From Chiloscyllium plagiosum (lineage: Eukaryota): a DNA stretch of 64,000 bases. A program made the position numbers and the translations under genes. The notes beneath the pieces were generated by a model. The model ran no database searches. It saw nothing but the letters and a program-made list of their open reading frames with translations, and was not told the DNA's origin. Positions 1,339-60,890 of this stretch are shown in pieces. How positions within the stretch are numbered: the stretch's first letter is position 1; each line of letters starts with the position of its first letter. The stretch covers positions 47,683,556 to 47,747,555 of the forward strand of contig NC_057718.1 in NCBI RefSeq assembly GCF_004010195.1. Direction: 5' to 3'.

Positions 1339-1569
1339 AGTCCAGATTAGAGAGGTGCTAGAAAAGCACAGCAGGTCAGGCAGCATCCAAGGAGCAGGAA
1401 AATCGACGTTTTGGGCAAAAGCCCTTCATCAGGGCTTTCCTGATGAAGGGCTTTTGCCCGAAACGTCGATTTTCCTGCTCCTCGGATGCTGCCTGACTTG
1501 CTGTGCTTTTCCAGCACCACTCTAACCTAGACTGATTTCCAGCATCTGCAGTCCTCACTTTTGACCACG
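1339..1569. mobile_element. Penelope-like terminal-repeat foldback insertion
   Basis: Inverted arms about 1345-1433 / 1439-1530 with a 5-nt loop. Flanked by direct repeat GAGGTAGAAG (1329-1338, 1570-1579). Arm sequence resembles the termini of the GIY-YIG-encoding elements at 38967 and 44282. Confidence 0.8.
1440..1467 (+). ncRNA. Minimal hammerhead ribozyme-like core
   Basis: CTGATGA-A-GGGC-TTTT-GCCC-GAAA-CGTC. The opposite-strand copy (1405-1432) has GAAA changed to AAAA. Confidence 0.7.
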
Positions 1570-2184
1570 GAGGTAGAAGGTCAACCATGTTCTGAATGAA
1601 TGGCAGGTCAATCTATGAACGGACTGGTATACCACTCCTGTGCCTATGGCAACCTATTTGATCATACATTTTAACACGATAATATAAGGAAGAACCATTT
1701 ATTTTAGAAGTGCTGATGTTTCTTTCTTGCTGTAGGCAAATAAAGATGATGGTCCAATAATGAGAACTTCTAACTGTAGCTTAATTATAATGACTAGATC
1801 TTTCCATACAATATTCATGACTTATAGATGCCTGAAGGGTAATCAACATCAATACCCTAGATTCCAGTTCACTCAGCTGCTAAGTTATGCCAGCATTTGA
1901 TAGCTCTAACGTGGAAAAAGTGGCCATCAGCTGAGGAATTATATACTCCATAACTATTGAGCCAGTGAAAGGTATCAAGCCATGCCCACTTTGGGCCATA
2001 AAGCTTTGACTTTATCAACTTGCTGTACTGCAATAAGAGTACAATTGTCAAGCTCTTATCACTTACTCAAATTACCAAAAGTTGCACTGTACAAACTGGC
2101 TTACACTTCTACAATACTCAGGAAAAAAAATGGCTTAACTATAGAGTGAAACAAAACTGAGCATTGATAAATGCAACAGTAGCA

Positions 2185-2326
2185 GACTCACCAACTTTAA
2201 GGGCATATAAATGGTTAGTAGATAAACATATGGATGAAAATGGAATAGTGCAGCATAGATAGGCTTCAGGTTGGTTCCACAGGCCGGCCAAAGGGCCTGT
2301 TCTGCACTGTAATGTTCTATGTTCTA
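2185..2326 (+). mobile_element. Short CR1/HER1-like 3' end
   Basis: Ends aagggcctgttctgcactgtaatgttctatgttcta, closely matching the tail at about 49727-49762. Confidence 0.7.
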
Positions 2327-2975
2327 ATACAGTAAGAAAAAAGTTAACAACAAAATTGTGGAACACAAATTCAATGGGTCTTATATATATAAACATAGGA
2401 TGTCAATAAGCCACAGGATGCACTGTGATGGCCAATATTAGTTATTCATTCACAGGTGCATTCTCCATCCTACTCTCCCTAATCCTGTCCACTGCCAGCA
2501 TTTAGTTTGCCCATACTATTGTTAACTGTGTTTATAGCCCTTTGCTTTGTTACCTTCCTTCTGTGAACTTTTAATTAAATAAAAGCATTTGTCAAACCAC
2601 ATTCCACAAAAATCCATCAAAAGGGTGGACTGAATCTTCGAACACTTGTTTGTTGTGACACAGGCACAGAAAATTATTACACCAGTGAGTTAGACTTCAA
2701 GTCAGTTATTTTATTCTGATCTGTTAATTTGGATGGAATTTGAAAAATTCTCAGATTCCTTACCCACTTTCTCCCCCTTACATATAAAATAAATGTGCAT
2801 TTATGTAATGCTTTTTACAACCAGATATCTGAACGCAGTTTGGGGAATTACATTTTTTCAGGGCAGATAAAAATTACATCAGAGCAGAAGAAATCGGAAC
2901 AGGAGTAGGCCAATCAGCTTTGAAGTAACCCCAATGCTTTAAAATATGCAGACCAAAACTGCATCCAGTACATAA

Positions 2976-3590
2976 TATTATGGACTAGGCCAAACTCCCT
3001 CAAAATATTTTAAGATGGTAACTTAGACCCTAACATTTCTTATTTTAAAGGCAAATGTAACATGTTGTGTCCCAGATGCAAACTGATTGGTCAATCTACT
3101 TGACATTACGCAAAACACCATCTATTCACTACTATAGTTAAAATACAACAAAAGAGGAGTTTAGAATAACCTAGCTCTATTGGAAAACTTAATAATAATA
3201 AATCCAGTAACTATTACTAATTACCTGCCCCAATATAGTAACATCCTATAAACACACCCTTTGGCAAAATGGCAGATTCAGAAATCCGATTTTCTCACAT
3301 GTAAGCCAGCAGAGTAAGTAAACAAAATATCTAGCAAAAACTCAGGAGTGGCAGCCAGGAAACCTTTACTGCAGCTTCCAGCAGGAACTGATACTGAATT
3401 TCAAAACTAAAGAAATAAAAACTAGAAATCCTGGTGTGTGAGAGCTGGCCACATCCATCCAGCTTGCTTCTGTTGTTTCAACTCCTAAAAAACCTCAAGG
3501 CCTCACAAACAGTATATGTTACCACAGACAGCTCTTCACTGCTCGTTCAATTTCTTTCTTAAAAGCAGCCAGGACAAAATAAATCGTTAC
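2976..3590. mobile_element. Solo-LTR-like insertion in an old CR1
   Basis: About 600 bp non-CR1 block with t(a/g)ttat...gttaca ends. It splits a minus-strand CR1 (ccaaaactgcatccagta | cctcaccaacagccctgta). Confidence 0.45.
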
Positions 3591-13300: not shown

Positions 13301-13394
13301 AAGTACATAGGATAGATGACAAATATGAACAATCTAAACTCAGGTGAGAGTTCCTGGATTGTGACTCATGACACTGAGGAACAGAAATATATTT

Positions 13395-17139: not shown

Positions 17140-20100
17140 TACAAACAGCAGAGCACAGGAACAGGTCTTTTGGCCAAGGAAGCCTCTGCCGATTCCCGGT
17201 CCTTATTTAGGCCTGCTACTTACTGCACATATGTGGTTTTATCAACAGGTGCCTTACTACAGCGCATGTAAAGAATGTCTATTGCCACTCCCTCATCAAT
17301 CATTCTTGTCACCTCCTCAAAAAACGCAATCAAGTTGGTGAGACATGATTTTCCCCCCACGAACCTATACTGTCTATCATTAACAAATGCATTCACTTAC
17401 AAATGTGGATATATCTGGAGTTCAGTATCTTCCACAACAATTTCCCCATCATTGACATCAGGCTCAGAAACCCGTAATTACCTGGATTATCTCTGTTTCC
17501 CTTTTTAGAGAAAAGTACAATATTGGCCACTCTCCAGTCCTCTGGAACCACACCTGAGGCCAAAGCGGATGCAAAGATATCAGGTAAGTCCCCACCTATT
17601 TCCTCCCTTGCCTCTCTCAGTATCCTGGATCAGAATCCATCTGGCCCTGTGAACTTGTCTACCTTAAGACATTTGAAGACACCCAAGACATCCTCCTTCG
17701 TTATGTTAACCTGCCCAAGAGTATTCACACACCTTTCAAAGAACAAAGAACACAAAATTCACAGCCCAAAAGCAGGGCCTTCGGCCCTCCAAGCCTATGC
17801 TGATCCAAATCCACTGTCTAAACCTATTACCCGATTCCTAAGGATCTGTATCCCTCTGCTCTCCACCTACTCATGCATCTGCCCAAACACACCTCAAAAT
17901 GAATCTACCATGCCTGCCTCTACTACCTCTGCTGGTAACGCGTTCCAAGCACCTACCACCCCTTGCCACATGTATCCCCCATAAACTTTCCTCCTCTCAC
18001 CTTGAACACATGACCTCTCGTTAGTGAATCCCTCAACTTAGGGGGAAAAAGCTAATCTTGATCCACCTTGTCAATCCCCTTCCTGATTTTATAGACCTCA
18101 ATCAGGACCCCCTCAATCTCCTTTTTTCTCATGAAAATAATCCTAATCTACTCAACCTCTCTTCATTGCTGGCACCTTCCATACCAGGCAACATCCTCGT
18201 AAACCTTCTCTGCACCTTCTCCAAAGCATCCACATCCTTTTGGTAATGTGGCAACCAGAACTGTACACTATGTTTTAAATACAGCCAAACTAAAGTCATG
18301 TACAATTTTAACATGACCTGCCAGCTCTTTTTTCAATACCATATGTCTTCTTGACCACTCTATCCATCTGTGCAGCCACCTTCAGGGTACAATGGACCTG
18401 AACTCCCAGATCTCTCTGTTCATCAACTTTTCCCAAGGCGCTTCCATTTACAGTACAGTTCACTCTAGAATGAGATCTTTCAAAATTTATCACCTCATAT
18501 TTTCCTGGACGGACGTTGCAATTCTGGACTCCTTCCTATTGGAAAGATGTTGTGAAACTTGAAAGGGTTTAGGAAATATTTACAAGGATACTGCCAGGGT
18601 TGGAGGCTGGGGTTATTTTTCCCTGGAGCGTCGGAGGCTGAGGGGTGACCTTATAGAGGTTTACAAAATCATGAGGGGCATGGATAGGATAAATAGACAA
18701 AGTATTTTCCCTGGGGTCAGGGAGTCCAGAACTAGAGGGCATAGGTTTAGGGTGAGAAGGGAAAGATATAAAAGAGACTTGGGGCAACTTTTTCACACAG
18801 AGGGTGGGACGGTTATGGAATGAGCTGTCAGAGGAAGTGGTGGAGGCTAGTACAACTGCAACATTTAAAAGGCATTTGGTTGGGTATATGAATAGGAAAG
18901 GTTTGAAGGGATATGGGCCGGGTACTGGTAGGTCGGACTAGATTGGTCGGGATATCTGGTTGGCATGGACGGGTTGGACCGAAGGGTCTGTTTCCATGCT
19001 GTACATCTCTATGAACTCTATCTGCTACTTCGCCGCCTAACTCTCCAGTCTATCTATATTCTCCTGTATTCTTTGACAGTTCACTTTGCGTTCTGCTCCC
19101 ACACCAATCTTCGTGTCATCTGCAAACTTATTGATCAGACCACCAATGCCCTCTTCCAGATCATTTATGTTGCCTTCTTCCACATCATTTATTCCCTAAC
19201 TTCAACATCCCTCATGACCCTCTATTTGGTAAATACTGAAGTAAGGTATCATTAAGGATCACATTCATTTCCTTTGGCTCCATGCAGAACCTCCCTCTTT
19301 TATCCTCGAGTAAGCCTACTCTTTCCTTAGCTACTAGCCTTTCCTTTCATCCTAATGGAATATACTGTCTCCAGACTCTGGTTATTTCATTTATGAAGGC
19401 TTACCATTTTCCATCCCTTTACCTGCAAATATCTGCCCCCAATCAGCTTTTAAAAGCTCTTGCCTAATAATGTCAAAATTAGCCTTTTTCCAATTTTAGA
19501 ACTTTAACTCTTGCTTCTAATGGGATTCTTTCTAACCCTGCTGGCCAAGAACATTTCATAGCCTCTTCCAGCCCTCCTAACTCCCTGTTTGCGCTCCTTC
19601 CTACTTATTCTATATTCTTCAAGGAGTTCTTCTGTTTTTAGTTGCCGAGACATTTGGTATGTTTTTTTTTGTGGACTAAGCTAGCCCCTTGCCATCCCAA
19701 GGTTCCTGAATCCTGCTATTCCTGTCCTTCATTTTCACATGAACATACTTGTCCTGCATGCTAATTAACTAGTCTTTAAAAGATTCCCATATGGCAGATA
19801 TGGATTCCCCTCAAATAGCCATTCCCAATCTAGACTCTCAAATTCTTGCCTAATTCAGTTATAGTTGCCCTTTCCCCAATTTAACAGTTCTATCTGAGGT
19901 CCATTCTTACCCTTGGCGATTAAATACCTGAACACTTATATAATTATGGTCACTCTTTCCAAATGATCCCCAATAAAACTTGCCAAGCTCATTTGCCAAT
20001 GTCAGGTAGAGTACGGACCCCTCCCTTGTTGGACTATTCACATATTGTTTCAGAAAACAGTCCTGGACACACCTAATAAATTACTCCCCATGCAAACCCC

Positions 20101-22185: not shown

Positions 22186-22499
22186 CATGGGGGTTGGGGG
22201 AGGTTGTGGTGGTGCAACTCCATGTAGAGAGTTGCCTGAGGCGGTTTTCCCTGGAGTGTCAGAGGCTGAGGGGTGAACTTACAGAGGTTTGTAAAATCAT
22301 GAGGGGCACGGATCAGGTAAATAGGCAAGGTCTTTTTCATGGGGTGGGGGGGGGGGGGGGGGGGTGGGGGGAGTCCAGAACTAAATGTCAGAGTTAATAG
22401 AATACCACAAATATAAAGGTAGGGGAATGGGTCTGGGTGGATTACTCTTCAGATGGTCAGTGTGGATTTGTTGGACTGACAGCCTGTTTTCACACTGGC

Positions 22500-32880: not shown

Positions 32881-33692
32881 TTCTGTCCTTCTGCCTTATG
32901 TTACAATCCAGGGATTAACAACTCTGAATTTTGGTTGGTCAATTTTGTGTCATGCTGACTAAGCATATACAATGTATGTTATTGGTACTTATACCAATAA
33001 GTCACAGTCACACACTCTTCTTTCTGATCAGTGACTGCCCCCTGGAATAAAGGGTCCAGGTAACCTTTCCCCCTTTCTGATCTGTTGCATTATACGTAAA
33101 TCAATGTTCGGGTCATAAACAAGTTGCTCAAGCTACAAACACGAATGCACATTTGCCCTGATTACAGTGGAATTGAGGAGCTCCCACATTCTACAATCAC
33201 AAGACAATAATTGTCCGGCCACCTTTTCGTCTTAATTAATTATCTTGAATAATTATTAAATTATCATCGCTAACGAGCACTTACTATACTTACTTGAACC
33301 TTACAATCCAATCTGTTACATTGAAAATTACATGAAAGTGCACAGTCAATATTCTAAACTATTGCTTTTTCCAAGCGTCATCAAGGAAAATAAACGTTGC
33401 ATGCCCACCTTTGGTAGAGATAGCTGAAAAGAACACTAATATCAATGAGATGCTAGCTGTAGGCTTGAAATGGCTGAAAATAATTCAAAATACCAAAGAA
33501 AGGGAAGGAATTCTGCAAGACAAAGAACTGACTGCCATTGGGTATATTCACCTGCATTGCTTCAGATGGAGACAACCAAAGCAGACCATGGAAGCCCTCA
33601 ACTTGTACGAAGATTTCCAAAAGCATGTGACAGAATTCCACATGAGGGATTGACAGTTAAACTCAATGCAAAATGGATTCAGGAAAAGCTCA

Positions 33693-33895
33693 AAAATGTG
33701 TTGCTGGAAAAGCGCAGCAGGTCAGGCAGCATCAAAGGAACAGGAGAATCGACGTTTTGGGCATAAGCCCTTCTTCATTCCTGAAGAAGGGCTTATGCCC
33801 GAAACGTCGATTCTCCTGTTCCTTTGAATGCTGCGCATTTCCAGCAACACATTTTTAAGCTCTGATCTCCAGCATCTGCAGTCCTCACTTTCTCC
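33693..33895. mobile_element. Penelope-like terminal-repeat foldback insertion
   Basis: Arms about 33693-33777 / 33782-33856. 14-bp direct repeat TCAGGAAAAGCTCA at 33679-33692 and 33896-33909. Confidence 0.8.
33781..33808 (+). ncRNA. Minimal hammerhead ribozyme-like core
   Basis: CTGAAGA-A-GGGC-TTAT-GCCC-GAAA-CGTC. Confidence 0.7.
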
Positions 33896-34813: not shown

Positions 34814-34837
34814 AAAGTTGGATTTTTCCAAAACATC
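34788..34837 (-). CDS. Candidate 50-nt exon (DVLEKSNFRAKKLFAH or MFWKNPTLGQKNYLLT)
   Basis: Acceptor tttcaatcatag, strong donor CAG|GTAAGA. Confidence 0.4.
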
Positions 34838-36030: not shown

Positions 36031-38966
36031 CCAGTTAGGATACCGACTCTCACCACCAACCTTCAGTCCATTTTTCAAGCAGCAAGCAGACAAATGAGCT
36101 GCTTAAGGGCCTATTAAGGTCCACGGTTAGAAGCAGATTGTTTTTCAGTTGCCTCCTTACAGTATGCCATCTCAAAATTTCTCACAGGGGAGGTAGAGCA
36201 GAATCAGGCATAGCTTCCTTGAAGTGAGCACTTCAGGTTTTCTGAGGCCTTCTCTACCTGCCTGAGCCAAAGAGCAACAGTAGACAATCCTGTGGATGAA
36301 ATCTCCCGCAACAGTAGAGGATTGACTATGAAAGTTTTTTTTTAAATTATATTTTAACAAGTTAGCCAGAGTGCACTTCTATTTGGGGGACCCTCTCCCA
36401 TTCTTTTCTGCAACAATATACAGTTGCTCCTTTCAAGCTGGAGGACCACTTATTAACACTTCAACTTTAAGTGGTTACCTGACCACCATCCTGAACTGCA
36501 GTGAGCCCATCCTCTAGTTATTTACTGGCCAGGTCAGTTACTGTTCCTCCTACAGAACAAGCTTCTAAACCAGATTCAAGCCCAACAAAAGGTAGTAACC
36601 TAAAATGGAGAGAAGAAACTTTGCCCGTGGTAAAGGTTTTCTGCCTTTGTTGATAGATAAATAAATAAAACTATCTTGGATTACCCAGATGACGACATAA
36701 GTTGCAAGAAACTTCAATTTGTTGCACAGTTGCAAGCTCCTCAGTTGCTTCCTTGTAAACCCATATCCATCTCACTGGTCATTGTACTCCTATTCTTGAT
36801 CATGAACCAGATCTGAAATATCCAGCCTCATGGGTGTTATTGGCTCTTGGAATAAATGTCCAAGTAACTTTAACCCTCCCATCACTGTGTTTGAAGTTCA
36901 GACTCCAACTCGCCAAAAGTCAGAACTCAACTTCTCAGAGTTACAAAGGACCACACTTGCCAATATATATTTTTTAGTCCCCTTCTGTTATGAAGGAGAG
37001 TCTTGAACTTGAAATGTTAACGCTTATTTCTCTCTTAGGATATGCTGTTGAACGTCTTCACTTCTAGTTCACATTTCTGGCATCAGCAATACTTCGTTTT
37101 TATTTGAGTACTGGACAGGGTAAACCTTGTGGTGTTGTGGGCATTTACTCCTGACTGACCCACTCCACCTATTTGATTAATTATTTGTGTTTGCTCCCAA
37201 GCAAATTTGGTCCCTAACTGATGTGTTGTTGTTATGTTACTGTAACCACAGTGATTTTGATCTCATACCTGGCCCTGTGTCATTTTGCCACAGTATTTAA
37301 TTTAAGCACATCGATACTTGAGCAGTCAGTTTATTCTCAGAACAAAAACTCTGATCTCTAAGGTGATCAGCAACAGCAAACAGGATTATTGCTCTATGGG
37401 ATATTTAATTCCAACACAGTGTATTAGTATTTGAGGTATTTAATCCCTCTCCTCTTGACTCCATTTTGAAGACAAGTGGAGAGGATGAGAAGGATCAACT
37501 TAATGACAATAATTATTGGATTGTGAAGTGAATAAACTTGGCATTTTCATTTGAAATTATATTTTATGCTTGAAAAAAGATTGTTTCAAATTAGGGATCT
37601 GCAGTCAAGTGATCCACTTCTGGAAAATATTTCAGAGGTGACAGTGGGACGCTAATGTAATTTGTCATCTGTATAACATACTGCCTAAGCAACAAAGCTT
37701 CAGATGTGATCACTTTTTTTCTTTGCTGCTTATTTTTAAAGCTATTAGGGTTTGTAATGTTGCCTTCGTAGAATGTGAGGTGATCCTATTAAATCATATA
37801 AAATTCTTGCAGTGGAGGAGGGAATGGATCAAGACAGGATGTTTCCCCTGGTTTGGTAATTCTAGAACCAGGGACACTTCAGACAGAGATGAGGAATTTC
37901 TTTGTTCAAAGGATGATGAGTCTTTTAAATTCTCTCTCACAGAAGGAAGTTCAATTATTCAGAATGTTCAAGACAGAAATCAGCAAGTTGATAAAACAGG
38001 TTCACCTCAAAGACAAGTGGACTGTTAGACCAGATTCAAAAGTTGGAGTTCTAAATTGGAGTAAGGCCAATTTTGATGGTATTAGGCAAGAACTTTTAAA
38101 AAGCAGATTGGGGACAAATGTTCGCAGGTAAAAGGACGGCTGGAAAATGGGAAGCCTTCAGAAATGAGATAAAGGGGGTCCAGAGAAAGCATATTCCTGT
38201 TATGGTGAAAGGAAAGGCTGGTAGGTATGGGGAATGCTGGATGACTAAAGAAATTGAAGGTTTGGTTAAGAAAAAGAAGGAAGCATATGTCTGCTATAGA
38301 CAGGACAGATCGAGTGAATCCTTAGAAGAGTATGAAGGCAGTATGAGTATACTTAAGAAGGAAATTAGGAGGGGAAGAAAGGGGAGATAAGATGGCCTTG
38401 GCAAATAGAATTAAGGAGAATCAAAAGGCTTTTTCCAAATACATTAAAGGACAAAAGGGTGACAAGGGAGCAAATAGGGCCCCTCAAAGATCAGCAAGGC
38501 AGCCTTTGTGTGGAGCTGCGGGAAATGGGGAAGATACAAAATGAGTATTTTGCATCAGTGTTTTCTGTAGACAAGGACATGGAAGATATAGAATGTGGGA
38601 AAGAGATGGTGACATCTTGAAAAATGTCCACAGTACAGAGGAGGAAATGCTGGATATCTTGAAACGCATAAAAGGTGATAAAAGCCCAGGACCTGATCAG
38701 GTGTACCCTAGAACTCGGTGGGAAGCTAGGGAAGTGATTGTTGGACCCCTTGCAGAGATACTTGTATCATCGATAGTCGCAGGTGAGGTGCTAGAAGACT
38801 GGAAGTTGGCTAACACGGTACCATTATTTAACAAAGGTGGTAAGGACAAGCAAGGGAACTATAGACCAGTGAGCCTGACGTTGGTGGTGGGCAAGTTGTT
38901 GGAGGGAATCCTGAGGGACAGCATGCAAGGACTGATAAGGGATAGTCAACATGGCTTTGTGCATGG

Positions 38967-40152
38967 ACAAAGTGAGGATTGCAGATGCTGAAGTATCAGA
39001 GTTGAAAAATGTGGTGCTTGCAAAACACAACAGGCCAGGCAGCATCCGAGTATCAAGAGAATTGACGTTTCGGGCATAAAGCCTTCTTCAGGAATGAGGC
39101 TGGTGTGCCAAGTGGGCTGAGATAAAAAGGTAGTGAGGAGGGGCGCTGGGAATACGATAGGGGGAAGGAGGTGAGGGTGAGGGTAATAGGCCGGAGAGGG
39201 AGTGGGCGCGGAGAGGTCAGGAAGAAGATTGCAGGTCAAGAGGGCAGTGCTGAATCCGAGGGTTGGGACTGAGATAAGGTGGGGGGAGGGGAAATGAGGA
39301 AGCTGAAGAAATCTCCATTCATCCCTTGTGGTTGGAGGGTTCCTAGGTGGAAGATGAGGCGCTCTTCCTCCAGGCGTCGTGTGGCCAGGGTCTGGCGATG
39401 GAGGAGGCCAAGGACCTGCATGTACTTGGAGGAGTGGGAGGGGGAGTTAAAGTGTTCAGCCATTGGACAGTTGGGTTGGTTGGTGCGGGTGTCCCAGAGG
39501 TGCTCCATGAAACGTTCCGCAAGTAGGCGGCCTGTCTCCCCAACGTAGAGGAGACCACATCGGGTGCAGCGGATACAGTAAATGTGTGTGTGTGTGTGGA
39601 GGTGCTGGTGAATTTGCGACGGATATAGAAGGATCCATTGGGGGCTTGTAGGGAGGTGAGGGGTGGGGAGGTGTGGGCGCAAGTTTTGCACTTCTTGCAA
39701 TTGCAGGGGAAGATGCCGGGAGTGGAGGTTGGGTTGATGGGGGGTGTGGACCTGACGAGAGAGTCGCGGAGGGAGTGGTCTCTCCTGAATGCCGATAGGG
39801 TTGGAGAGGGAAATAAAACCCTGGTGGTGGGGTCTGGAGGTGGCGGAAATGATGGAGGATGATACCATGTATCTGGAGGTTGGTGGGGTGGAAGGTGAGG
39901 GTCAGTGGGGTTCTGTCCTGGTGGCGACGGAGGGGCGGGGTTCAAGGGTGGAGGTGCGGGAAGTAGAGGAGATGCGGTGGAGAGCGTAGTCGACCACGTC
40001 GGAGGGGAAATTGCGGTCTTTGAAGAAGGAGGCCATTTGAGTTGTTCAGTAGTGGAATTGGTCCTCCTGGGAGCAGATGCGGCGGAGGCGAAGGAATTGG
40101 GAATATGGGATAGTGTTTTTACAGGGAGCAGGGTGGGAGGTGGTATATGGGT
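38967..40152 (-). mobile_element. Penelope-like element, 5'-truncated (RT thumb, GIY-YIG endonuclease, terminal repeat)
   Basis: SHPAPCKNTIPYSQFLRLRRICS; IYCIRCTRCGLLYVGETGRLLAERFMEH...RRLEEERLIFHLGTLQPQGMN. 13-bp TSD GCTTTGTGCATGG (38954-38966, 40153-40165). Confidence 0.92.
39064..39091 (-). ncRNA. Minimal hammerhead ribozyme-like core in PLE terminal repeat
   Basis: Reverse complement CTGAAGA-AGGCTTTATGCCC-GAAA-CGTC, in the same sense as the PLE ORF. Confidence 0.6.
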
Positions 40153-42971: not shown

Positions 42972-44378
42972 CTAACAAATGAAAAGGACTGCAGAACCCA
43001 ATTCCTAAATATTCACAATATGGCACCATACATTTCTGCCTTTAAATTCTACATAGTGGATTCATGATCCGAGTTGTCTGGAATCAAATACATTAAGAGA
43101 CATTACCTAAAAACACTGGTACTGAGTAGATGCACATGTTTGCCAAAAAAAAAAAACAAGAACAGCTATGCCAATTTAACTAGGAACTTTAAAGCAGCAG
43201 ATAAGCCATTCACTGAGGTTTAAGCATCTTTTAAGATTGTTGTTGAGGGTAAATGGCTTTAACCTTCACTGCTGATATCTCTAACAGATGGTTTCAAATC
43301 ATTCTTACATCATGTCAAAGAGCAGGCATATAATAAACTTGGATTCTTTTTTTGTTAAAAAGTTCTTTGGCAGCCTCATGTGGCACTTCCTTTGGCAGCT
43401 CATTCCATTCAAATGCCAAAGACGACAGAACAGTGTACGTTGCCTAAATCGACTTCAACTAGGCATTGACAAGGTTCTGCATGGTCGACTGGATAGCAAA
43501 GTTAGATCACAGAATCCAGAAAGAGCTAGCCATTTGGATAGAAAATTGACTTCTAGGTAAGAGACAGAGGGCTGTTTTCAGACTGGAAGCCTGTGACCAA
43601 CAGTGTGCCACAAGGTCAATGCTGAGCCACTGCTTTTTGTCATTTATGTAACTGATTTGGATTTGAATAAAGAAGAAATGGTTAGTAATTGTGCAAAATT
43701 GGTCACGTAGTTGACAGCGAAGGAGGTTATTGTAGAATACAACAGGACCTTGCTCAGATGGGCCAACAGACCACGGAGTCTCAGATGGTGTTTAATTTAG
43801 ATAAACGTGACGTGCTGTATTTTGGTAAGGCAAATCAGGCAGGACTTGTATACTTCATGCTATGGTCCTGAAGTGTTTTGCTGAACAAAGAGACCTTGGA
43901 GTGCAGGTTCATAGTTCCTTGAAAGTGGAGTTGCAGGTAGACAGGGTACTGAAAGCAGTATTCGGTACACTTGCCTTTATTGGTCAATGCATTGAATTTC
44001 AGAGTTGGGATGTCATGCTACTGCTGTACCAGAACATTGGTTCGGCCACTTTTTTTGAATACTGCATTCAATTCTGGTCTGCCTGCTATCAGAAAGATAT
44101 TGTGAAACTTGAAAGGATTCAAAAGAGATTTACATGCATGTTGCCGGAGTTGGAGGGTTTACGCTATTGGGAAAGGCTGAATAGGCTGGAGCTATTTTCC
44201 CTGGAGAGTCAGAGGCTGAGGCCAATCTTATAGATGTTTATAAAATTATGGGTCACATGGATAGGGTGAATAGCCATATAGGTAAAAACAATGACTGCAG
44301 ATGCTGGAAACCAGATTCTGGATCAGTGGTGCTGGAAGAGCACAGCAATTCAGGCAGCATTTGAGGACAGGCAAAATC

Positions 44379-44406
44379 AATGTTTCGGGCAAAAGCCCTT
44401 CATCAG
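44379..44406 (-). ncRNA. Hammerhead-like core, cleavage-site region mutated
   Basis: Reverse complement CTGATGA-A-GGGC-TTTT-GCCC-GAAA-CATT. Confidence 0.5.
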
Positions 44407-44733
44407 GAATAAAGGCAGAGAGCCTGAAGCGTGGAGAGATAAGCTAGAGGAGGGTGGGGTGGGGAGAGAGTGGCATAGAGTACAATAGGTCAGTGGGGAA
44501 GGAGATGAAGGTGATAGGTCAGGGAGGAGAGGGTGGAGTGGATAGGTGGAAAAGGAGCTGGGCAGATCGGACAAGTCCGGACAGGTCAGGGGAGCGAGTT
44601 TCTGGAGGTTAGAAGCTAGGATGAGGTGGGGGAACGGGAAATGAGGAAACTGTTGAAATCCACACTGATGCCCTGGGGTTGAAGTGTTCCGAGGCAGAAG
44701 ATGAGGCGTTCTTCCTCCAGGCATCTGGTGGTG

Positions 44734-45365
44734 NNNNNNNNNNNNNNNNNNNNNNNNNNNNNNNNNNNNNNNNNNNNNNNNNNNNNNNNNNNNNNNNNNN
44801 NNNNNNNNNNNNNNNNNNNNNNNNNNNNNNNNNNNNNNNNNNNNNNNNNNNNNNNNNNNNNNNNNNNNNNNNNNNNNNNNNNNNNNNNNNNNNNNNNNNN
44901 NNNNNNNNNNNNNNNNNNNNNNNNNNNNNNNNNNNNNNNNNNNNNNNNNNNNNNNNNNNNNNNNNNNNNNNNNNNNNNNNNNNNNNNNNNNNNNNNNNNN
45001 NNNNNNNNNNNNNNNNNNNNNNNNNNNNNNNNNNNNNNNNNNNNNNNNNNNNNNNNNNNNNNNNNNNNNNNNNNNNNNNNNNNNNNNNNNNNNNNNNNNN
45101 NNNNNNNNNNNNNNNNNNNNNNNNNNNNNNNNNNNNNNNNNNNNNNNNNNNNNNNNNNNNNNNNNNNNNNNNNNNNNNNNNNNNNNNNNNNNNNNNNNNN
45201 NNNNNNNNNNNNNNNNNNNNNNNNNNNNNNNNNNNNNNNNNNNNNNNNNNNNNNNNNNNNNNNNNNNNNNNNNNNNNNNNNNNNNNNNNNNNNNNNNNNN
45301 NNNNNNNNNNNNNNNNNNNNNNNNNNNNNNNNNNNNNNNNNNNNNNNNNNNNNNNNNNNNNNNNN
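44734..45365. other. Assembly gap (632 N)
   Basis: Run of N. Confidence 1.
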
Positions 45366-45917
45366 GGACAAGTCATGGGGACAGTGCTGAGCTGGAAGTT
45401 TGGAATTAGGTTGAGGTGGGGGAAGGGGAAATGAGGAAGCTGTTGAAATCCACATTGATGCCCTGTGGTTGAAGTGTTCCGAGGCGGAAGATGAGGCGTT
45501 CTTCCTCCAGGCGTCTGGTGGTGAGGGAGCGGCGGTGGAGGAGGCCCAGCACCTCCATATCCTCGGCAGAGTGGGAGGGGGAGTTGAAATGTTGAGCCAC
45601 TGGGCGATTTGGTTGATTGATGCGGGTGTCTCTGAGATGTTCCCTAAAGCGCTCTGCTAGGCGGCGCCCAATTTCCCCAATGTAGAGGAGGCCGCATCGG
45701 GAGCAACGGATACAATAGATGATATTAGTGGATGTGCTGGTAAAACTTTGATGGATGTGGAAGGCTCCTTTAGGTCCTTGGATGGAGGTGAGGGAGGAGG
45801 TGTGGGCGCTGGTTTTACAGTTCCTGCGGTGGCAGGGGAAAGTGCCAGGATGGGGGGGTGGGTCGTAGGGGGGCGTGGACCTGACCAGGTAGTCACGGGG
45901 GGAACGGTCTTTGCGGA

Positions 45918-46235
45918 AGGCGGAGAGGGGTGGGGAGGGAAATATATCCCTGGTGGTGGGGTCTGTTTGGAGGCGGAGAGGGGTGGGGAGGGAAATATAT
46001 CCCTGGTGGTGGGGTCTGTTTGGAGGCGGAGAGGGGTGGGGAGGGAAATATATCCCTGGTGGTGGGGTCTGTTTGGAGGCGGAGAGGGGTGGGGAGGGAA
46101 ATATATCCCTGGTGGTGGGGTCTGTTTGGAGGCGGAGAGGGGTGGGGAGGGAAATATATCCCTGGTGGTGGGGTCTGTTTGGAGGCGGAGAGGGGTGGGG
46201 AGGGAAATATATCCCTGGTGGTGGGGTCTGTTTGG
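45918..46235. repeat. Six tandem copies of a 53-bp G-rich unit
   Basis: Unit AGGCGGAGAGGGGTGGGGAGGGAAATATATCCCTGGTGGTGGGGTCTGTTTGG starting at 45918, 45971, 46024, 46077, 46130 and 46183. Confidence 0.95.
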
Positions 46236-46578
46236 AGGTGGCGGAAATGTCGGCGGATGATTTGGTTTATGCGAACGCCTCATCTTCCGCCTTGGAACAC
46301 TTCAACCCCAGGGCATCAATGTGGATTTTAACAGTTTCCTCATTTCCCCTTCCCCCACCTCATCCTAGCTTCTAACCTCCAGAAACTCGGTCCCCTGACC
46401 TGTCCGGACTTGTCCGATCTGCCCAGCTCCTTTTCCACCTATCCACTCCCCCCTCTCCTCCCTAACTTATCACCTTCATCTCCTTCCCCACTGACCTATT
46501 GTACTCTATGCCACTCTCTCCCCACCCCCACCCTCCTCTAGCTTATCTCTCCACGCTTCAGGCTCTCTGCCTTTATTC

Positions 46579-46606
46579 CTGATGAAGGGCTTTTGCCCGA
46601 AACGTC
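46579..46606 (+). ncRNA. Minimal hammerhead ribozyme-like core
   Basis: CTGATGA-A-GGGC-TTTT-GCCC-GAAA-CGTC. Confidence 0.7.
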
Positions 46607-47079
46607 GATTTTGCCTGTCCTCGGATGCTGCCTGAATTGCTGTGCTCTTCCAGCACCACTGATCCTGAATAGCCATATAGTCTTCTTCCTAGGGTACAGG
46701 AGTCCAAAACTAGAGGGCATAGGTTTAAGGTGAGAGGGTAAACATTTGAAAGGGACCGAAGGGGCAACCTTTTCACGTAGAGTGTGGTGTGTGCAAGGAA
46801 TGAACTGCCAGAGGAAGCAGTGGAGGCTGGTACAATTACAACATTCAAAAGGCATCTGGATGGGTACATTATTAGGAAGGGTTTAGAGGAATATGGGCCA
46901 AGTCTTGACAAATGGGACTAGACTAATTTATGATATCTGGTTGGCATGGACGAGTTGGACCAAAGGGTCTGTTTTCGTGCTGTACATCTCTATGACTCTA
47001 AGTTTAACAATATCTTTCTTTTATGAAATATATTTTTGTATGAGCTTATCTAATTTATCTTGAGTGCAAGGTTTTTCTT

Positions 47080-47459: not shown

Positions 47460-47880
47460 CCAAACCGACACCCAGGTCTGGTCATGACATAGGTTGCTTC
47501 CAACACAGCCAATCCATTCTCATTCCTATCACATGGCATGAGTTGCTTCCAGCAAAGCAAATCCATTGTCTCCTACTCAGATCTCATTATGACTTATTCA
47601 GCTTCTCTTGTCCAGGCCAATCAATAATCCCCTCGTACGCTTACCCCTTTCACATCTCTCTCTCTCTGGAATTCGTCTCCAACGAAGGCTCACCTCTTCT
47701 CCCATCCCACCAGTCTTCAGCACAAATACTACTTTTTCCTACCCACTATGACGACTGGTGAAAACAGCCGACTCAAAACATTAAGTTTGCTTTCTCCCCA
47801 CAAATGCTGCCAGAACGGAGTTTCACCAGCAATTTTTGTTTTTGTTTCATATGTCCAGCATCCACAGTTCTTTGTTGCAT
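47460..47880 (+). mobile_element. Old Penelope-like 3' end relic (similar piece at about 36980-37100)
   Basis: Ends aaatgctgccag...ccagcaatttttgtttttgtttcatatgtccagcatccacag, paralleling the gatgctgcc...ccagcatctgcag termini of the young PLEs. Confidence 0.5.
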
Positions 47881-52870: not shown

Positions 52871-54084
52871 TTGAACAGTCTGTGAACTGACCCATTGATT
52901 GTCTGCCTGATCAAAGGCTGCATAAAATTCAGCATAACTGTGCATAATAGATTTAATCTGCATTGCTTTGAAACCCATTGAGTTTATAACAAAATAATTT
53001 AAATACTCTTATTCCCATTCATTCCACAACATTATGTTTTCATTACTTAGCTGTGATAACAAGACGATTCTTCAACATCACTAAAACTAAATCAGAATTT
53101 TTTAAAAATTCTGTTATGATTAGTTCATTTGAGCAGAAAATGAAATCTAACTATAGGCAGTCTTGGGGACACTCTAATACAGGTTTTTCAGTAGGCAGCT
53201 TGCAAGCCAGGATATGGGCATCTAAAGGGTCCTGTGCAGCATGCCAGGCCATTGTTTGACATAAATCTTAGTAGGTTTTGTAAGGAACTCACCAGTGAAC
53301 CCCCAAATGCAACAGAGAAAGTGTGTTTCATTGGAACAACAGCAAACAAAGGATGGAATTGGTTTAATGGAGCCTGAGGTCTGAAGCCAAATCAATGAGT
53401 GAGTGAGAGGGTTTCAATTATACATTGTCTTGAAGAGGAGACTGAGAGTTGGCTTGAATGGGGGGAGCACATTGAGTAAGCACTAGAACACGGGGGAGTG
53501 AGTCAGGCAATGGTGGGGAAGGTAACAGGTTAACAGTCACCTGTGATTGAGGGCGAAAAAATCAGGTTGTCAACGGTAGGAGAAGGGTTAGCTTCAGGCC
53601 TTTGATTAGGAGTGGCCATGCAGTGAATGAATACCGGTCTGTAGGAGAAAGAATGCAATTTCCTTTTCCAGAAATTGTTTTACTTCCCCAAATACTTTTA
53701 GGACTGAACATCTTTTCATGACCACATTCAGTTTGCCTGCAGCATTGGTGATTAGCTGATTGGAAGGTCCTGAATAAATTGCCAATCAAATTCCAGGGAC
53801 ATCTCCCTTCATAACCATTGATCTTTCTCCTCGAAGATATTAATTAACAAACCTCTCAAAGCTGGAAAGTAACTAGAGTGGTGGGTGAGGGAAGTGGATT
53901 GGGCTGAACACATCAAACCAACCCCACCTCCACCTTTATTAAAATTTTGAGAGTACCCAGAGGTGAACAGAGATCAGTGTCAGTTAAACTCAACTCCTTT
54001 GACGGATTCCTCCTGCTTTCTAGTGACTAGGACTTGGGAATCAGTCATTTTCCCTATCTAGCTTTGCTTATAAAACTAAAAGGG

Positions 54085-54358
54085 AAGACCACCTGATGAA
54101 GGAGCAGTGCTTCCAATTAAATCTGTTGGACTGTTGGACTATAACTGGAGTTGTATGCTTTTTAAACTTTGTACACCCCAGGTAAAAACAATGACTGCAG
54201 ATGCTGGAAACCAGATTCTGGATCAGTGGTGCTGGAAGGGCACAGCAGTTCAGGCAGCATCCGAGGAGCAGTAAAATCGACGTTTCGGGCAAAAGCCCTC
54301 TTTATTCCTGATGAAGGGTTTTTGCCCGAAACGTCGATTTTACTGGCATCTCCAAATC
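54085..54358. mobile_element. Nested PLE terminal repeats: foldback (54181-54345) inside a different CTGATGA-bearing repeat
   Basis: 54181-54299 is nearly identical to 44281-44399. The inverted partial copy holds a hammerhead core at 54308-54335. The host repeat begins ccacCTGATGAaggagc. Confidence 0.7.
54308..54335 (+). ncRNA. Minimal hammerhead ribozyme-like core
   Basis: CTGATGA-A-GGGT-TTTT-GCCC-GAAA-CGTC (U-G pair in stem II). Confidence 0.65.
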
Positions 54359-57300
54359 AAAAAGGGAAGAAATAGTCTTTATTAGTTAGATCTGCAACTT
54401 GGCACTTCTGAATAGCCATTTTTATGCAATACTCATTTAAATGATCAACATATTTGAATTATTTTTCCCCCTCCTGAAATATTCACTGGTGTGGCAAAGC
54501 TCAACTTTGTAAAATTTGCTCATGGTCCACAGAATGAGAGAAACAATTTAACTAAAGTAGGAAAGTGAAGGTGATTGCCCTTGACATCACGAGAGCATCT
54601 GACTCAATATGGCATCATGGAGCCCTAACAAAACTGGAGTCAATGGGAACCTGGGTAAAACCTTCCACTGGCTGCAGTCATACCCAGTACAAAGGAAGAG
54701 GAGTGTGAGTGGGAGGTCAATTGTCTCAGCCACAGAACATTTCTGCAAAGGTTCCTATTACAAAGGTAGCTATTCTTAAATCAACCTGTGCAGAGCATGT
54801 GGAACTTGAACCAAGGCTCAAAGATAGGTGCCATAAGAGTCCCTAGTTCCTCATGGAAGTGTCCTAGCTCCAATCAGCTTTAATTGCTTCATTAATTCCT
54901 TTCCCTCCATTACAAGGTCTGAAGCAGGAATGGACACTGATGACTGCACAATGTCCAACACCACTTTAATTTCTCAGATATTTAAGCAGTTCAACAGCAG
55001 GAATACCTGGACAAATTCTGGCTTAGGCTTCTAAGAACATAAGAACAAGGAGCAAGAGTAGGCCGTCCAGCACTACGAGCCTGCTCTGCCACTCAATAAG
55101 ACTCATCTCCGGTTACCCATGTTTTCACTATAACCCTTAATTCCTTTATTTTTCAAAAAAGTGTCTACCTTAGCTTTAAGAGCGATTACTGAAGTAGCAT
55201 CAACTAATTCCCTGGGCAAGGAATTCCACAGATTAACAAACCGCGCGGGGGGGGGGGGGAGAATTTCCTTCTCAGTTCAGTTCTAAACCTGCTTCCTCTC
55301 ATCTGGAGGTATGCCCTCTTGACCTGGTTTCACCTACCAGTGGAAACATCCTATTCATTTCTATTTTATCAATTCCCTTTGTAATTTTCTATGTTTCTAT
55401 AAGATCCCCCTGTCATTCTGAATTCCAATGAATATAATCCCAATCTACTCAGCCTCTCCTCATAAACCAACCCCCTCAACTCTGGAATCAACGTAGTGAA
55501 CCTCCTCTATACCCCGTCCAGTGCCAGTACATCCTTTCTTAAGTCAGGAGATCAAATCTGCACACAGCACTCCATGTGTGGCCCCACCAGCACTTTGTAC
55601 AGCTGTAATATTACCTCTCTCTTTTAAAATTCAACTCCTTTAGCAATGAGGGACAAAATTCCATTTGCTTCCTAATTGCTTGTTGCACCTGTAGACCAAC
55701 CTTCTGCAATTCTGCACAAGGACAGCTAGATCATCAGCATGCTGCAACCTTTTAATCATTCAAGTACCAATCTATTTTGCTGTTACACCTATCAAGATGT
55801 ATGACTTCACGTTTACTACCATTGTATTCCATCTGCCAGACCTATGCCCACGCACTCAATGTATCTATTTCCCACGGCAAAGTTTCAGTCCTCTGCACAC
55901 TTTGCTCTGCTACTCAACTTAGTGTCATCGGCAGATTTTGACACAATACACGTGGTCCCCAACTCCAAATCATCTGTATAAGTAATTGTGGTCACAACGC
56001 CGATCCCTAAGGCACACCAGTCACTGACTGCCCGCCAGAATAGCACTCATTTATCCCCAGTCTTCACTTCATGACAGTCAACCAATCATCTATCCACACT
56101 AATACTCGACCCCTAAAACCATGCATCCTTATCTTATGTAGCAGCTTCATGTGCAGCACTTTGTCAAAGGCCTTTTGGAAATCTAGGCACACAACATCCA
56201 TTGGGTCCCCATTGTCCACCTTGCTTTAAATGTCTTCATAGAATTTCAAAAAGATTTGTGAAGCATGACCTGCTCTTCATGTCCCACTATATAGTCGCAG
56301 TATGGGTTCAATTTCTTTCAAGATGCCCCGCTATTTCTTCTTTGATAATAGACTCAAGCATCTTCCCCACTGCAGAGGTTAAGCTCACTGGTCTATAATT
56401 CCCCATCTTTTGTCTACTTCACTTTTTAAATGGTGGTGCCAAATTTGCTATTTTTAATCTGCTGGGACTGCCCCGGAGTCCAGTGGATTTTGGAAAATTA
56501 CTGTTAGTCCACCTGCTATTTCTCCTGCCATCTCTTTTAGTACAGTGGGATGCATTCCATCAGGGCCAGAAGACTTATTTATCCTTAGCTCCATGAGCTT
56601 ACCCAACACTAGCTCTTCTATAATAATAATTGTTTCCAGGTCCTCACCTACCTTCATCTCTTCGTAACTTACTGGGATATTATCATCCTCCGCTGTGGAG
56701 ACTGATGCAAAGTACCTGTTCAATGCCTCAGCCATTTCATCATACCCCATCACTAACTTGCCCCTTCTCATCCTCTAAAGAATGAACATTTAATTTAGCC
56801 ACTCTTCTTCATTTTATATATTTATAGAAACTTTTGCTATCTGTCTTTATATTCCCAACGTTCTAGATTCCTGCTGTTTTTGGCCACTTTGTATGCCTTC
56901 TCTTTCACTTTGATAGCCTGCCTTATTTCCTTCGGCACTCGTGGCAGATTACTCCTCCTCCTCCTCACTGGAAGGTACTTGTGCTGAGCACTTTGAAAAA
57001 TTTCTTTGAAGGTCCTCCACTGCTCATCAACCGTCACATCATAAAGTCTCTGTTTCCAGTCTACTTTAGCCAGGTCCCCCCTCATTCTATCATAGTCCCC
57101 TTTATTCAAGCACAGGACCCTGGTATTGGATTTTATCTCCACACTACCCAGCTGATTTTAAATTCAACCATACTGTGATCACTCCTTCCAAGAGGATCCC
57201 CGACTATGAAGTCATTAATTATTCCAGTCTCATTACATAGGAGCAGATCTAGGATAGCTTGCTTCCTCATTGGTTCCATTACATGCTATTCAAGAAAACT

Positions 57301-58624
57301 ACTACAGATACACTCAACAAACTCTTCCTCAAGGATACCCTAACCAAGCTGGTGCGACCAAGCTACATGCAGATTAAAATCCCTCATGATAATAGCCATA
57401 CCATTTTTGCAAGCATTAGTTATTTCCTTATTTATTGCCCAGCCCAATGTGATGTTATTATTTGGTGACTTATAGACTAAGCATATCAATGACTTTTTCT
57501 TCTTGGAATTCCTAATTTCCATCCAAATGGATTCAACCTCATGCTCCATAGAACGTATACCATCTCTCAGCACCGCTCTGAATATCAGAGCTACACCACC
57601 TCCCTTGCAGTCCTGTCTGTCCTTCCGAATAATCTGATACCTCTAGATATTTAATTCCCAGTCATGACCATTCTGCAACCATTTTTCCATGAAGGCTACA
57701 AAATCATATTCGTTCAAGATGCTTTGTGCTGTTTACTCATCAACCTTGTTAAGAATGCATTCAGGTAAAATACCTTTCGGCTAGCCTTCTTACCATATGA
57801 TTCATAACATCTAATATCTCCTAAGTTATCCTTCATTTTTGCTTCTTTCACAGTTTGCCTTGAACTTAAACCCTCCTGCATACAAGCTAACCTGCTGGTT
57901 ACCTTTTCATTTATCACCACACTTCCTGTTGCTTTCCCTTTCCCTTTGCCCCGACTCGTTTAAAGTCCTAATGACCACCCTATTTATCCTTTTCGTGAGA
58001 ACACTGGTTCCAGATTGGTTCAGGTAGATACTGTCCCATCAGTACAGATTCCCCCTAGCTGCAAAACTGATGCCAATGCCCCATGAAATGGAAACTCTTT
58101 TTCTCACACCATTCCCTTTGCCATGTATTTACTTCCCTAATTTTCTTGTTCCTAAGACAATTTGCATGTGGCTCGGGCAGTAATCCAGATATTATGATTA
58201 TTGAGGACCTGTTCCTTAATTTCATTCCTCGTGCTTGATAATACCCAAACAGGTCCTCCATCCTACCCTTGCCTATGTTGTGAGTCGACCACAACAACTA
58301 GCTCCTCCCCCACCCGCTCCAGTATCCTTTCAAGCAGGTCAGAGATGTCCTGCATCCTGGCACCGGACAGGCAACATACTATGCGGGACTCCCTACCTGG
58401 ATTGCAAATGATACTATCTGTTCCCCTTATTATAGAATCCCCTATAACTCCCACTTGTCTTTTTGCTCCCCCTGTCTTGAATCGCCTTCTGCACTATGGT
58501 GTCATGGTTAGTTGGCTCATCCTCCTCACAGGAGAAAGTGAGGTCTGCAGATGCTGGAGATCAGAGATGGAAATGTGTTGCTGGAAAAGCGCAGGTCAGG
58601 CGGCATCTAGGGAACAGGAGAATC

Positions 58625-58652
58625 GACGTTTCGGGCATTAGCCCTTCTTCAG
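58625..58652 (-). ncRNA. Minimal hammerhead ribozyme-like core
   Basis: Reverse complement CTGAAGA-A-GGGC-TAAT-GCCC-GAAA-CGTC. Confidence 0.7.
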
Positions 58653-58656
58653 GAAT

Positions 58657-58684
58657 CTGAAGAAGGGCTAATGCCCGAAACGTC
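58657..58684 (+). ncRNA. Minimal hammerhead ribozyme-like core
   Basis: CTGAAGA-A-GGGC-TAAT-GCCC-GAAA-CGTC. Confidence 0.7.
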
Positions 58685-60890
58685 GATTCTCCTGTTCTCT
58701 AGATGCTGCCTGACCTGCTGCGCTTTTCCAGCAACACATTTCCAGCTCATCCTCCTCACAGCCCTTTTCCTAATCCATAAAGGGAGCAAGAATCTCATAC
58801 CTGTTGGATAAAGGTCAAAAGCTGAGGCTCTTGTACTCCTGAACTCAGGATCCCCCTACCCACCTCACTTACAATCACACCCTGTTGTCCCTCATCACTA
58901 ACTGAATTTGAATTACTTAATCTACCAGGTGGGACTGCCTCCTGAAACAAAGCGTCCAGGTAACTCTCCCTCTACTAGATGTGCCAGTATTTGAAGCTCA
59001 GATTCCAGATCATCAACTCTCAGTCGGAGTTCTTCCAGCAACCAACGCTTGCTGCAGATGCAATCACTGCCATTCACAATGGGATCAGCAGCCCCCACAC
59101 ATACAGCTACAGCACGTCACCGACCAGCCATCTCCACCTAGTTAATTAATACATACAAATTTGAGTTTAATAATTTCTAGTACTTTGCTATGGTCTTATT
59201 CAATTAACCAATTAACAGAAGATTAAACAAAGTAAATTTTTAACCAACCAACTTACCTTATCAACCCACCACAGAGTCCTTTCTTTGTGGTTAGAGGAGG
59301 GCAGGTGGGAGACACGACACGTCTCGGGTTCAGCCGCTGCCCAAATATATTGCCAGCAGCCCTCGCCCCCCTCCGGTGTTCACCTCTGCCTCTGCTCCTG
59401 TAAAATGGTAGGTCCCAATGCTAGAGATAACCATCAAGTAACATTCATACCATACAAGTGCCAGGCAAAGACAAAGACAAAGATAATCTCTAACAAGACA
59501 ATTTAACTATGGCCCTGTTATTCAATAGCATTTCAATTGCTGAATTCACTCCCACTACCAACTCCTACAATTTACCATCAACTAGAAACTAAATTGGACC
59601 AGCCATATAAATACAGTGGCTGGAAGTACAGGTCAGAGGTTGAGAATTCTGGACTTTTCAAATCCAGTCCACCATTTACAAGGCATACGTCAGGAGTGAG
59701 ATGCAGTACTTTTCACTTGCCTGAAACAGATTGAATTCCAACAACACATAAGGTACTAAACACTATCTACAACAAAGCAACCCACTTGACTGGCACTCCA
59801 TTTAACATCTTCAACATTTACTCTTTTCACCAGACTCCATAACAACCGTGTGCAATACTCTGCAACAACTCTCAAACATTCCTGAGACCTTCCAAATGTA
59901 TAATCTCAAAGAAAATGGCAGCAGATGCATGGGATCACCACAAACTGCAAGTAACCCTTTATGCCACACACCATCCTGACTTGAAACTATATCACTGTTG
60001 TGACTATAACTGCTCAAGGCAGCAGCTGACCACCACCTTCTGAAGGGCAATTAGGGACGAACAATCAATGCTAGCCCAACTAGTGATGCCCACTTTTGCG
60101 ATTTTTTTTTAAAAAATCCTCTTGAAAACTTCACCACAGCATCTGCCAATCCATTTTTGTACATTTGAACGAAGTTGTGTGTTAATTATGACAAGAACAG
60201 GAAGAACAAATTCCAACACCCATTCAATGTTTTACAGCAAAACTATTTAAGGCAGTGCTGGATTAAATTTTCAAACTTTGCATAATAGCAATCATGAATT
60301 ATACTGATCTCTTCCATCTTCCCTTATGAATAATCCAAAAAAAAAGCATAATCCTCTGAAAAATGACAATTCTCATTACACTTGTAAGAATATCTGAACA
60401 CAAGTCTACTTAAAAATTAATAATTATGTGCTGCTAAGAGTCAACCAGCTAGTGAGGACTTCATTAAGAACTCCGTAGACTTTGAAAGACATTTTACTTG
60501 GAGAATTTACTGCCTGCGTACCCCCCTTAAGATTGTCTTCAACAAAATAATAAAATTTTAGGCAAAGTTGACAAAACTAACTGGTCAGCATGGACAAGTT
60601 GAACTGAAGAATCAGTTTCCAGCATTCTGAACTTATATTGCAGCAAAACTGTGGTTACTGCAAATAAACTAAATTGCTTTTATGCTGACAGTCACTACGT
60701 CATGCATGCTACTAGACTATAAAATTAACCCACAACTACTTGCATTGGCAATCTCACAACCTGCCCACCACATTAGGGTTAAAGTTGAGTCCATTTTAAT
60801 TAGTAAGATATACATAGAAACTGTGAAACACTGCAAGCTGTCAGTAAATTGTGACAGAATTCTGTCAGTTGCAGATTTTTTCAGATTGTA

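Follow-up and report, generated by a model that had tools for sequence, protein, structure and literature searches.

Fold-back insertions of a Penelope-like terminal repeat

We analysed a 64,000-nt stretch of the Chiloscyllium plagiosum genome (contig NC_057718.1, positions 47,683,556 to 47,747,555; hereafter the window), which contains six loci (A–F) of the terminal repeat of a Penelope-like element (PLE) carrying a hammerhead ribozyme motif. A sequence-only reading of the window had reported four short insertions (A–D) made of this repeat folded back on itself, and all four are present where it placed them. Each consists of two head-to-head copies of the PLE end, in every case an antisense arm followed by a sense arm, with the 3' ends facing outward (Table 1). 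Throughout, the repeat is numbered from C3 of the CUGANGA box, taken as 0, with plus values downstream and minus values upstream. The same reading described one arm of each insert as complete and the other as truncated. The arms are indeed unequal, but the arm called complete is better defined as the one bearing the PLE tail, and the other ends at about +85 to +93 in A, B and D. The direct repeats that it noted at three inserts are also genuine (10 bp at A, 14 bp at B and 17 bp at D); no target duplication was found at the flanks of C. Taking all six loci together, an inverted head-to-head copy is seen in five (A–E) and a target-site duplication of 10–17 bp in five (all but C). Among random flank pairs, a shared word of at least 10 letters occurred in 15 of 2959. 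The centres differ in all four inserts: A has a three-letter insert, B a three-letter overlap, and C and D are blunt.

Table 1. Coordinates of the PLE-derived insertions and their parts in the window
Feature	Coordinates	Strand	Description
A, whole insert	1339-1569		antisense +93..-1, 3 extra letters, sense -3..+129; 10-bp duplication
A, left target-site duplication	1329..1338		10 bp; right copy 1570-1579
A, tail-less arm	1339..1433	-	+93..-1; core G12 changed
A, centre	1434..1436		three extra letters
A, tail-bearing arm	1437..1569	+	-3..+129; intact motif 1440-1467
B, whole insert	33693-33895		antisense +85..+1, sense -6..tail, 3-letter overlap; 14-bp duplication
B, left target-site duplication	33679..33692		14 bp; right copy 33896-33909; 5/6 last letters match the element's short end
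B, tail-less arm	33693..33777	-	+85..+1; core G12 changed
B, tail-bearing arm	33775..33895	+	from -6; 3-letter overlap with other arm; intact motif 33781-33808; 11-bp internal deletion
C, whole insert	54180-54345		antisense tail..+7, sense -8..about +37; no duplication
C, tail-bearing arm	54180..54299	-	tail..+7; without CUGANGA
C, short arm	54300..54345	+	-8..about +37; motif 54308-54335, G-U pair in stem II
Host insert of C	54089..54359	+	different short insert; 11-bp duplication 54078-54088 / 54360-54370
D, whole insert	58531-58744		antisense tail..-4, sense 0..+87; 17-bp duplication
D, left target-site duplication	58515..58531		17 bp; right copy 58745-58761
D, tail-bearing arm	58531..58656	-	tail..-4; intact motif 58625-58652
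D, tail-less arm	58657..58744	+	0..+87; intact motif 58657-58684
E, inverted unit	44280..46670		2.4 kb; same element; GIY-YIG end of its open reading frame; turn at -306
E, tail-bearing arm		-	holds GIY-YIG end of reading frame and 632-N gap (44734-45365)
E, tail-less arm	46273-46670	+	starts at -306
E, target duplication	44267-44281 / 46666-46680		15 bp
F, single-arm 5'-truncated copy	38965..40152	-	5' end -1061; linker and GIY-YIG remnants
F, target duplication	38954-38966 / 40153-40165		13 bp

The ribozyme motif

As proposed earlier, the repeat carries a minimal type I hammerhead motif, with the core boxes, helix II and a palindromic helix III all present. At up to three mismatches the motif occurs 10 times in the window and not once in 100 shuffles, and six of the 10 occurrences are exact (core boxes CUGANGA, GAAA and UH, plus helix II and palindromic helix III). 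A pattern scan for further copies gave no loci in metagenome contigs and none in viral contigs. Five of the eight arms of A–D have an intact motif, and G12 of the core is altered in the short arms of A and B. The predicted ribozyme cut falls after +27, with +28 as the next base.

Stem II had been said to show the pattern expected of a structured RNA. It is conserved, with 97% of cells paired across nine related arms, but a covariation check found no two-sided changes in these arms, a sample too small and too closely related to weigh against structure. Helix I has three of four pairs with a U-U inside and is paired in 69% of cells in the nine arms; its predicted pair probability in the monomer is <0.02. 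An Rfam search at E<=1 yielded no hammerhead among its 10 matches, and the microRNA (miRNA)-type matches, which score under the gathering thresholds, reflect the hairpin shape.

The minimal type I hammerheads described for metazoan PLEs share with the present motif the core boxes, one extra base before G10.1-C11.1, and a palindromic 15.2-16.2 without loop 3 (PMC4209133). Those motifs are mostly single, at times two on opposite strands, and show weak activity, only in multimers. Here, helix II is 4 bp, helix I is weak, and the ribozyme is a putative one; opposite-strand motifs abut, whereas those described are 100-700 bp apart.

Parent element and longer copies

The PLE origin of the repeat, also part of the sequence-only reading, is supported by the open reading frame (ORF) that it ends, which matches relatives with GIY-YIG and reverse transcriptase (RT) domains. 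Parent ORF frames are 48-82% identical to 10 proteins, three of which (816-902 amino acids) carry an RT domain; the frame in E shares 82% identity with a Chiloscyllium punctatum protein and 64% with one from the whale shark. A C-terminal GIY-YIG endonuclease lies just upstream of the terminal repeat, as in endonuclease-containing (EN+) PLEs, with weak, below-cut-off matches to Pfam PF01541 in two of three frames tested (E 0.0066 and 0.0013). The copies in the window end short of the RT core, and the RT domain is present only in the related proteins. Alignment with these relatives places a CxxxxCxxC linker ahead of the nuclease; its last Cys is altered in E, and the frame 39346-40176 has a three-Cys linker. 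A Zn-finger-like Cys linker between RT and endonuclease is a mark of Neptune and Nematis (PMC8557442). Given the protein matches and this linker, the parent appears to be a Neptune-like PLE and the host a shark-type genome. A–D are, very probably, independent insertion products of such an element.

E and F are two longer copies of the same repeat, absent from the earlier list, whose 5' ends are distant from the ribozyme. Within the PLE ORF remnant of E, a 53-bp tandem repeat at 45865-46288 gives six overlapping matches, and beside the 632-N gap part of the element is present twice; E is perhaps a partial tandem, or its assembly may be wrong at this place. An ATG at +46 in the arms of A–F opens a frame (MLP-D/E-LL...) that runs through the tail, with similar residues kept across subfamilies, and may be the start of the PLE ORF. 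This frame is open throughout in just two of six tail-bearing arms, and no protein matches were found for it at E<=1 among eight candidates. An old, diverged copy of a related terminal repeat lies at 47774-47872 on the plus strand (nhmmer E 4e-5), with pyrimidine-rich sequence extending upstream; an intact core and a target duplication were looked for in this copy, and neither was found.

Probable separate construction of the fold-backs

One suggestion of the sequence-only reading was that these insertions form a non-autonomous ribozyme-bearing family of their own. We found no support for this. In all five inverted units (A–E), each arm is most similar to its partner (93-97% identity), compared with 70-95% between units; every between-unit value of 92-95% comes from a comparison with C's 46-nt arm or with E, of the same subfamily. 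Three subfamilies are represented (A; C/E; B/D/F), and loop 2 distinguishes B from D in both arms. Because arms match within units and the four centres are different, these data argue for separate construction from separate templates. Each fold-back was likely built anew at its insertion from its own template. Arm-to-arm gene conversion could contribute to the identity of partner arms. Shared ends and a shared internal junction, expected of a family with its own master, were not seen in the four copies examined.

Folding predictions point the same way. For stem II, the predicted pair probability is 0.0 when any of the four inserts is folded whole, and a hammerhead-like fold would then cost 21.5-35.5 kcal/mol; in three single arms begun at -4 the probability is 0.96-1.0. 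The hammerhead is thus predicted not to fold within the A–D hairpins, and it is likely a passenger in these insertions.

A retrozyme-like origin, in which each hairpin element would be a unit transcribed from a master and copied whole, would account for the similar size and layout and for the target duplications, and PLE-derived non-autonomous hammerhead elements are known in vertebrates (bioRxiv 10.64898/2026.07.22.740005). Such non-LTR retrozymes (LTR, long terminal repeat) resemble A–D in being short, non-coding and derived from pseudo-LTRs (pLTRs), carry a type I hammerhead, and are present in a cartilaginous fish. However, they are head-to-tail tandems with at least two same-strand ribozymes, whereas A–D are all head-to-head and share no master. 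The uniqueness of every centre across three subfamilies and the predicted loss of stem II also tell against such an origin, as does the fact that the antisense arm would be transcribed first, whichever the direction. We regard it as very unlikely. A–D are best seen as ordinary PLE debris, and neither an miRNA-hairpin annotation nor one as a new ribozyme family is warranted.

Inner ends at the 5' edge of the ribozyme

All eight inner ends of the arms of A–D fall between -8 and +7 (A -1/-3, B +1/-6, C +7/-8, D -4/0). For loci A–F, eight of 11 5' ends lie within a 16-base window, a clustering which, counted as ends, has P<=0.0003 under four nulls. Counted per element (four of six), P rises as the null is tightened, from 0.00004 through 0.0015 and 0.03 to 0.075. 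The simulation covered loci A–F, leaving out the host insert of C and the old copy at 47774-47872.

It had been proposed that the ribozyme motif sets the fold-back point. The turn position is indeed non-random, but it is helix I's 5' edge that serves as the landmark, and the cut site at +28 does not. If ribozyme cleavage made an RNA end at which copying stops or turns, the cut RNA would have a fixed 5' end, and the motif is intact in most of the arms; the arms should then start at +28, yet none of the eight does. A +28 row is likewise missing among the 24 of 1341 loose-end rows listed from public data (see below), and cleavage mutants insert normally in the anole system (PMC11167929). We judge this explanation highly improbable. 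Nor is the turn itself tied to the ribozyme, since it lies at -306 in E, a counter-example to a fixed turn position, and the 5' end of F is at -1061. Because copies with unrelated upstream flanks also end at the 5' edge, it marks the end of copying rather than of folding, and the earlier proposal holds as a statement of position only.

The host insert of C, which is unrelated, also begins at -4 of its CTGATGA (at 54093, four bases past the 5' edge of the insert). The rest of its core is unrecognisable, and no other copies were found within the window; presumably it belongs to another shark PLE family.

We mapped four public sequencing runs (X1, X3, X15 and X21, among 24 listed) on the tail-bearing arm 44280-44730, and considered the loose-end rows and joints listed, 24 of 1341 and 15 of 98 respectively. 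The repeat is very abundant, with 60,747 and 72,117 contigs of two DNA-type runs matching this 451-base copy. Among listed rows with long, dissimilar flanks, the largest pile of loose ends is at -4 (601 contigs in X1; 598 in X3, plus 199 at -3), with a flank agreement of 0.30-0.34. The pile at -4/-3 numbers 33 + 19 in X15, and X21 has 164 reads at -4 (agreement 0.54), where raw-read depth is 549 and drops in the three 16-base bins that follow to 219, 116 and 81. X21 is a polyA single-cell RNA run in which 44280-44730 is read on both strands at similar depth, as expected of passive read-through of many copies. For comparison, the true 3' end gives piles of 168 (X1), 273 (X3) and 15 (X15). Since the flanks do not map back on the repeat, many copies with no inverted arm next to them seemingly end at -4 too. 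The loose ends piled at +31 and +33 have short, alike flanks (agreement 0.70-0.81); we rejected these as true ends for that reason and read them as subfamily breaks.

Helix I has its 5' edge at -4, and in both subfamily references this base is the A of a match to YYANWYY, an initiator-like consensus. We tentatively propose that RNAs of shark Neptune-type PLEs begin at the 5' edge of the hammerhead and that the very numerous 130-230 bp stubs and fold-backs are run-off copies of the opening part of that RNA, primed at two internal sites from both nicks, a proposal to which we give a little less than an even chance.

Several points weigh against it. The clustering is weak under tight nulls (P=0.03-0.075 per element). 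A second subfamily diverges at -5 from the mapped copy, inflating the -4 pile, whose consensus opens with the letters of that subfamily, such that the two causes are inseparable. YYANWYY is a common word (four in 398 and nine in 476 bases) with no match at -4 in the host of C. An inner end of C, at -8, lies past a sharp start at -4, as possibly does one of B, at -6. The end counts cover the rows and joints listed. There is no strand-switch joint among the joints listed from the four runs, although this says nothing against fold-backs because contigs collapse palindromes. No pile of RNA starts or ends was seen in the one raw-read RNA run, a library of a type unsuited to show them. Finally, the start site of Drosophila virilis Penelope lies 46 bases before a 75-base intron (PMC2377424), and it is the end of this intron, not the start site, that meets helix I (PMC4209133); hence the D. 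virilis RNA does not start at the ribozyme. We found no published report of 5' ends piling at helix I, in a search that left most subscription literature outside.

The D. virilis intron also bears on another explanation, in which the template is longer and the edge arises either from polymerase stalling on the upstream pyrimidine-rich, splice-acceptor-like tract or from 5'-to-3' trimming of the RNA to a protein-bound ribozyme. A YAG occurs shortly upstream in both subfamily references (next base -17 and -8), and the anole ribozyme requires the element's protein (PMC11167929). Moreover, a structural edge fits the -8..-3 spread and a host of C without an initiator match. But none of the four centres contains upstream exon sequence, the listed skip joints from -4 lack splice ends, and many copies run through the tract (E, F, and the upstream depth in public runs). 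Stalling or trimming seems to us an unlikely origin of the edge.

Chimeric or mis-collapsed inverted reads might also produce apparent fold-backs. Such units are known to cause assembly trouble (PMC8557442); E contains a 632-base gap, and the lack of listed strand-switch joints would fit. The arms, however, differ by 3-7% with private indels, and 10-17 bp duplications frame three of the four inserts, making an assembly artefact scarcely credible.

Outer ends and target duplications

The outer ends are bimodal, with a tail end at +121..+129 in four measured arms and a short end at +85..+93 in four of five tail-less arms. A, B, D and E each have this short end together with a long end near +125, whereas the short arm of C stops earlier. 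Loose ends in the public runs lie at +125 (X1, X3 and X15) and +91 (X15). In three of the four duplicated inverted units (B, D and E; not A), 4-5 matching letters are shared by the target duplication and the short end, which suggests base pairing at the short start site. The overlap with the tail end is 1-2 letters.

A proposed two-primer model

The fold-back layout and the hammerhead motif are already published; the fixed 5' edge was not found in the literature searched. Insertion units of EN+ PLEs share with A–D the inverted 5'-truncated copy at the 5' end, the head-to-head palindromic junction, the one-sided 30-40 bp tail and the short target duplication (PMC3846280, PMC8557442). The present inserts differ in being ~200 bp, without an ORF body, and in having both inner ends confined to a 16-base stretch at the ribozyme's 5' edge. 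The passages of one review considered here (PMC6765202) add nothing on inverted stubs. The closest functional data concern an anole PLE (Poseidon of Anolis carolinensis, PAc), which cuts and extends both strands in vitro and initiates at two internal sites, which delimit the tail; 5'-truncated RNA gives shorter products (PMC11167929). PAc uses uncleaved RNA, and ribozyme cleavage is dispensable. Its ORF starts at stem II, with the main start 111-118 bases into the ORF, close to the +125 end here. PAc belongs to a different clade, the element here having the Neptune/Nematis Cys linker, and the sections of that study considered here do not deal with the centres of fold-backs or with clustering of 5' ends.

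Our model builds on what is observed in the window: the layout and duplications, two outer ends, inner ends that cluster, and a different centre in each of the four inserts. From the in vitro behaviour of the lizard PLE it borrows the cutting and extension of both strands, starts at internal sites and the use of uncleaved RNA; double priming, the RNA start and the sealing step we infer. The element's protein would cut both target strands 10-17 bp apart, and each nick would prime reverse transcription at one of two internal sites, ~+125 and ~+90. Both complementary DNAs (cDNAs) would then run off an RNA beginning at the 5' edge of the ribozyme (~-4), and the two antisense cDNAs would meet and be sealed by end-joining, giving a fold-back tailed on one side. 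The internal start sites would be present twice in PLE RNA, near the 5' end and at the 3' end. Priming near the 5' end would give a short cDNA running off at the first base of the RNA, and priming in the downstream repeat at the 3' end would give long, randomly truncated copies such as E and F. The chances that the whole mechanism (two-strand cut, double priming, run-off from ribozyme-edge RNA and end-joining) is correct seem to us evenly balanced.

In L1 twin priming, both target nicks prime and the inversion is sealed by microhomology, with the second primer at variable internal sites and two non-overlapping parts. Here, by contrast, the starts are fixed at two positions, and the two arms span the same stretch of sequence.

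The main alternative to two cDNAs is self-priming, in which one tail-end cDNA folds back near the 5' edge of the ribozyme and copies itself, and the endonuclease resolves the hairpin, leaving the tail on one side. It has been put forward for PLE palindromic junctions (PMC3846280), and the tail has been ascribed to endonuclease resolution (PMC8557442). Self-priming accounts equally well for arm identity. In A, B and D the short arm lies wholly within the span of the long one. A snap-back predicts this nesting too, to the detriment of the two-primer model; these three inserts fit either mechanism. The centre of B could form a 3-bp stem with a 4-base loop, but with -2.7 kcal/mol for the whole fold this hairpin is marginal, the other subfamily has no predicted counterpart, and A and D have no centre overlap. 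The tail-less arm of C contains -8..+6, which is absent from the tail arm, and because it reaches further 5' in this way, two cDNAs fit C better than one snap-back. Self-priming also leaves the copies with unrelated flanks that end at -4 unexplained, and we consider it unlikely.

Other inverted repeats in the window

Short fold-backs are not confined to PLEs. A 120-bp fold-back of a different repeat, which we take to be a 3' end of the CR1/short interspersed element (SINE) type, lies at 22418-22537, with 47-nt arms of 87% identity and a 26-nt spacer. Two young inverted pairs are present at 19331-19512 / 20298-20479 (182 nt, 95%) and 34480-34561 / 34745-34826 (82 nt, 95%). They are unlike the terminal repeats of one element and are possibly inverted pieces of long interspersed elements (LINEs). 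A further inverted pair of a short repeat, at 35064-35260 / 35700-35895, is 82-84% complementary, with its members 439 nt apart.

Implications for Penelope-like elements

How PLEs form inverted ends and a one-sided tail, and what role the hammerhead plays, are open questions in the field (PMC8557442, PMC11167929). If our proposal is true, the genome records the RNA start and two-primer integration in vivo, for several families at once. The ribozyme would then be the first structure of the RNA, with no role for its cleavage. Abundant, young, minimal insertions with fixed ends offer a natural test bed for distinguishing double priming from self-priming.

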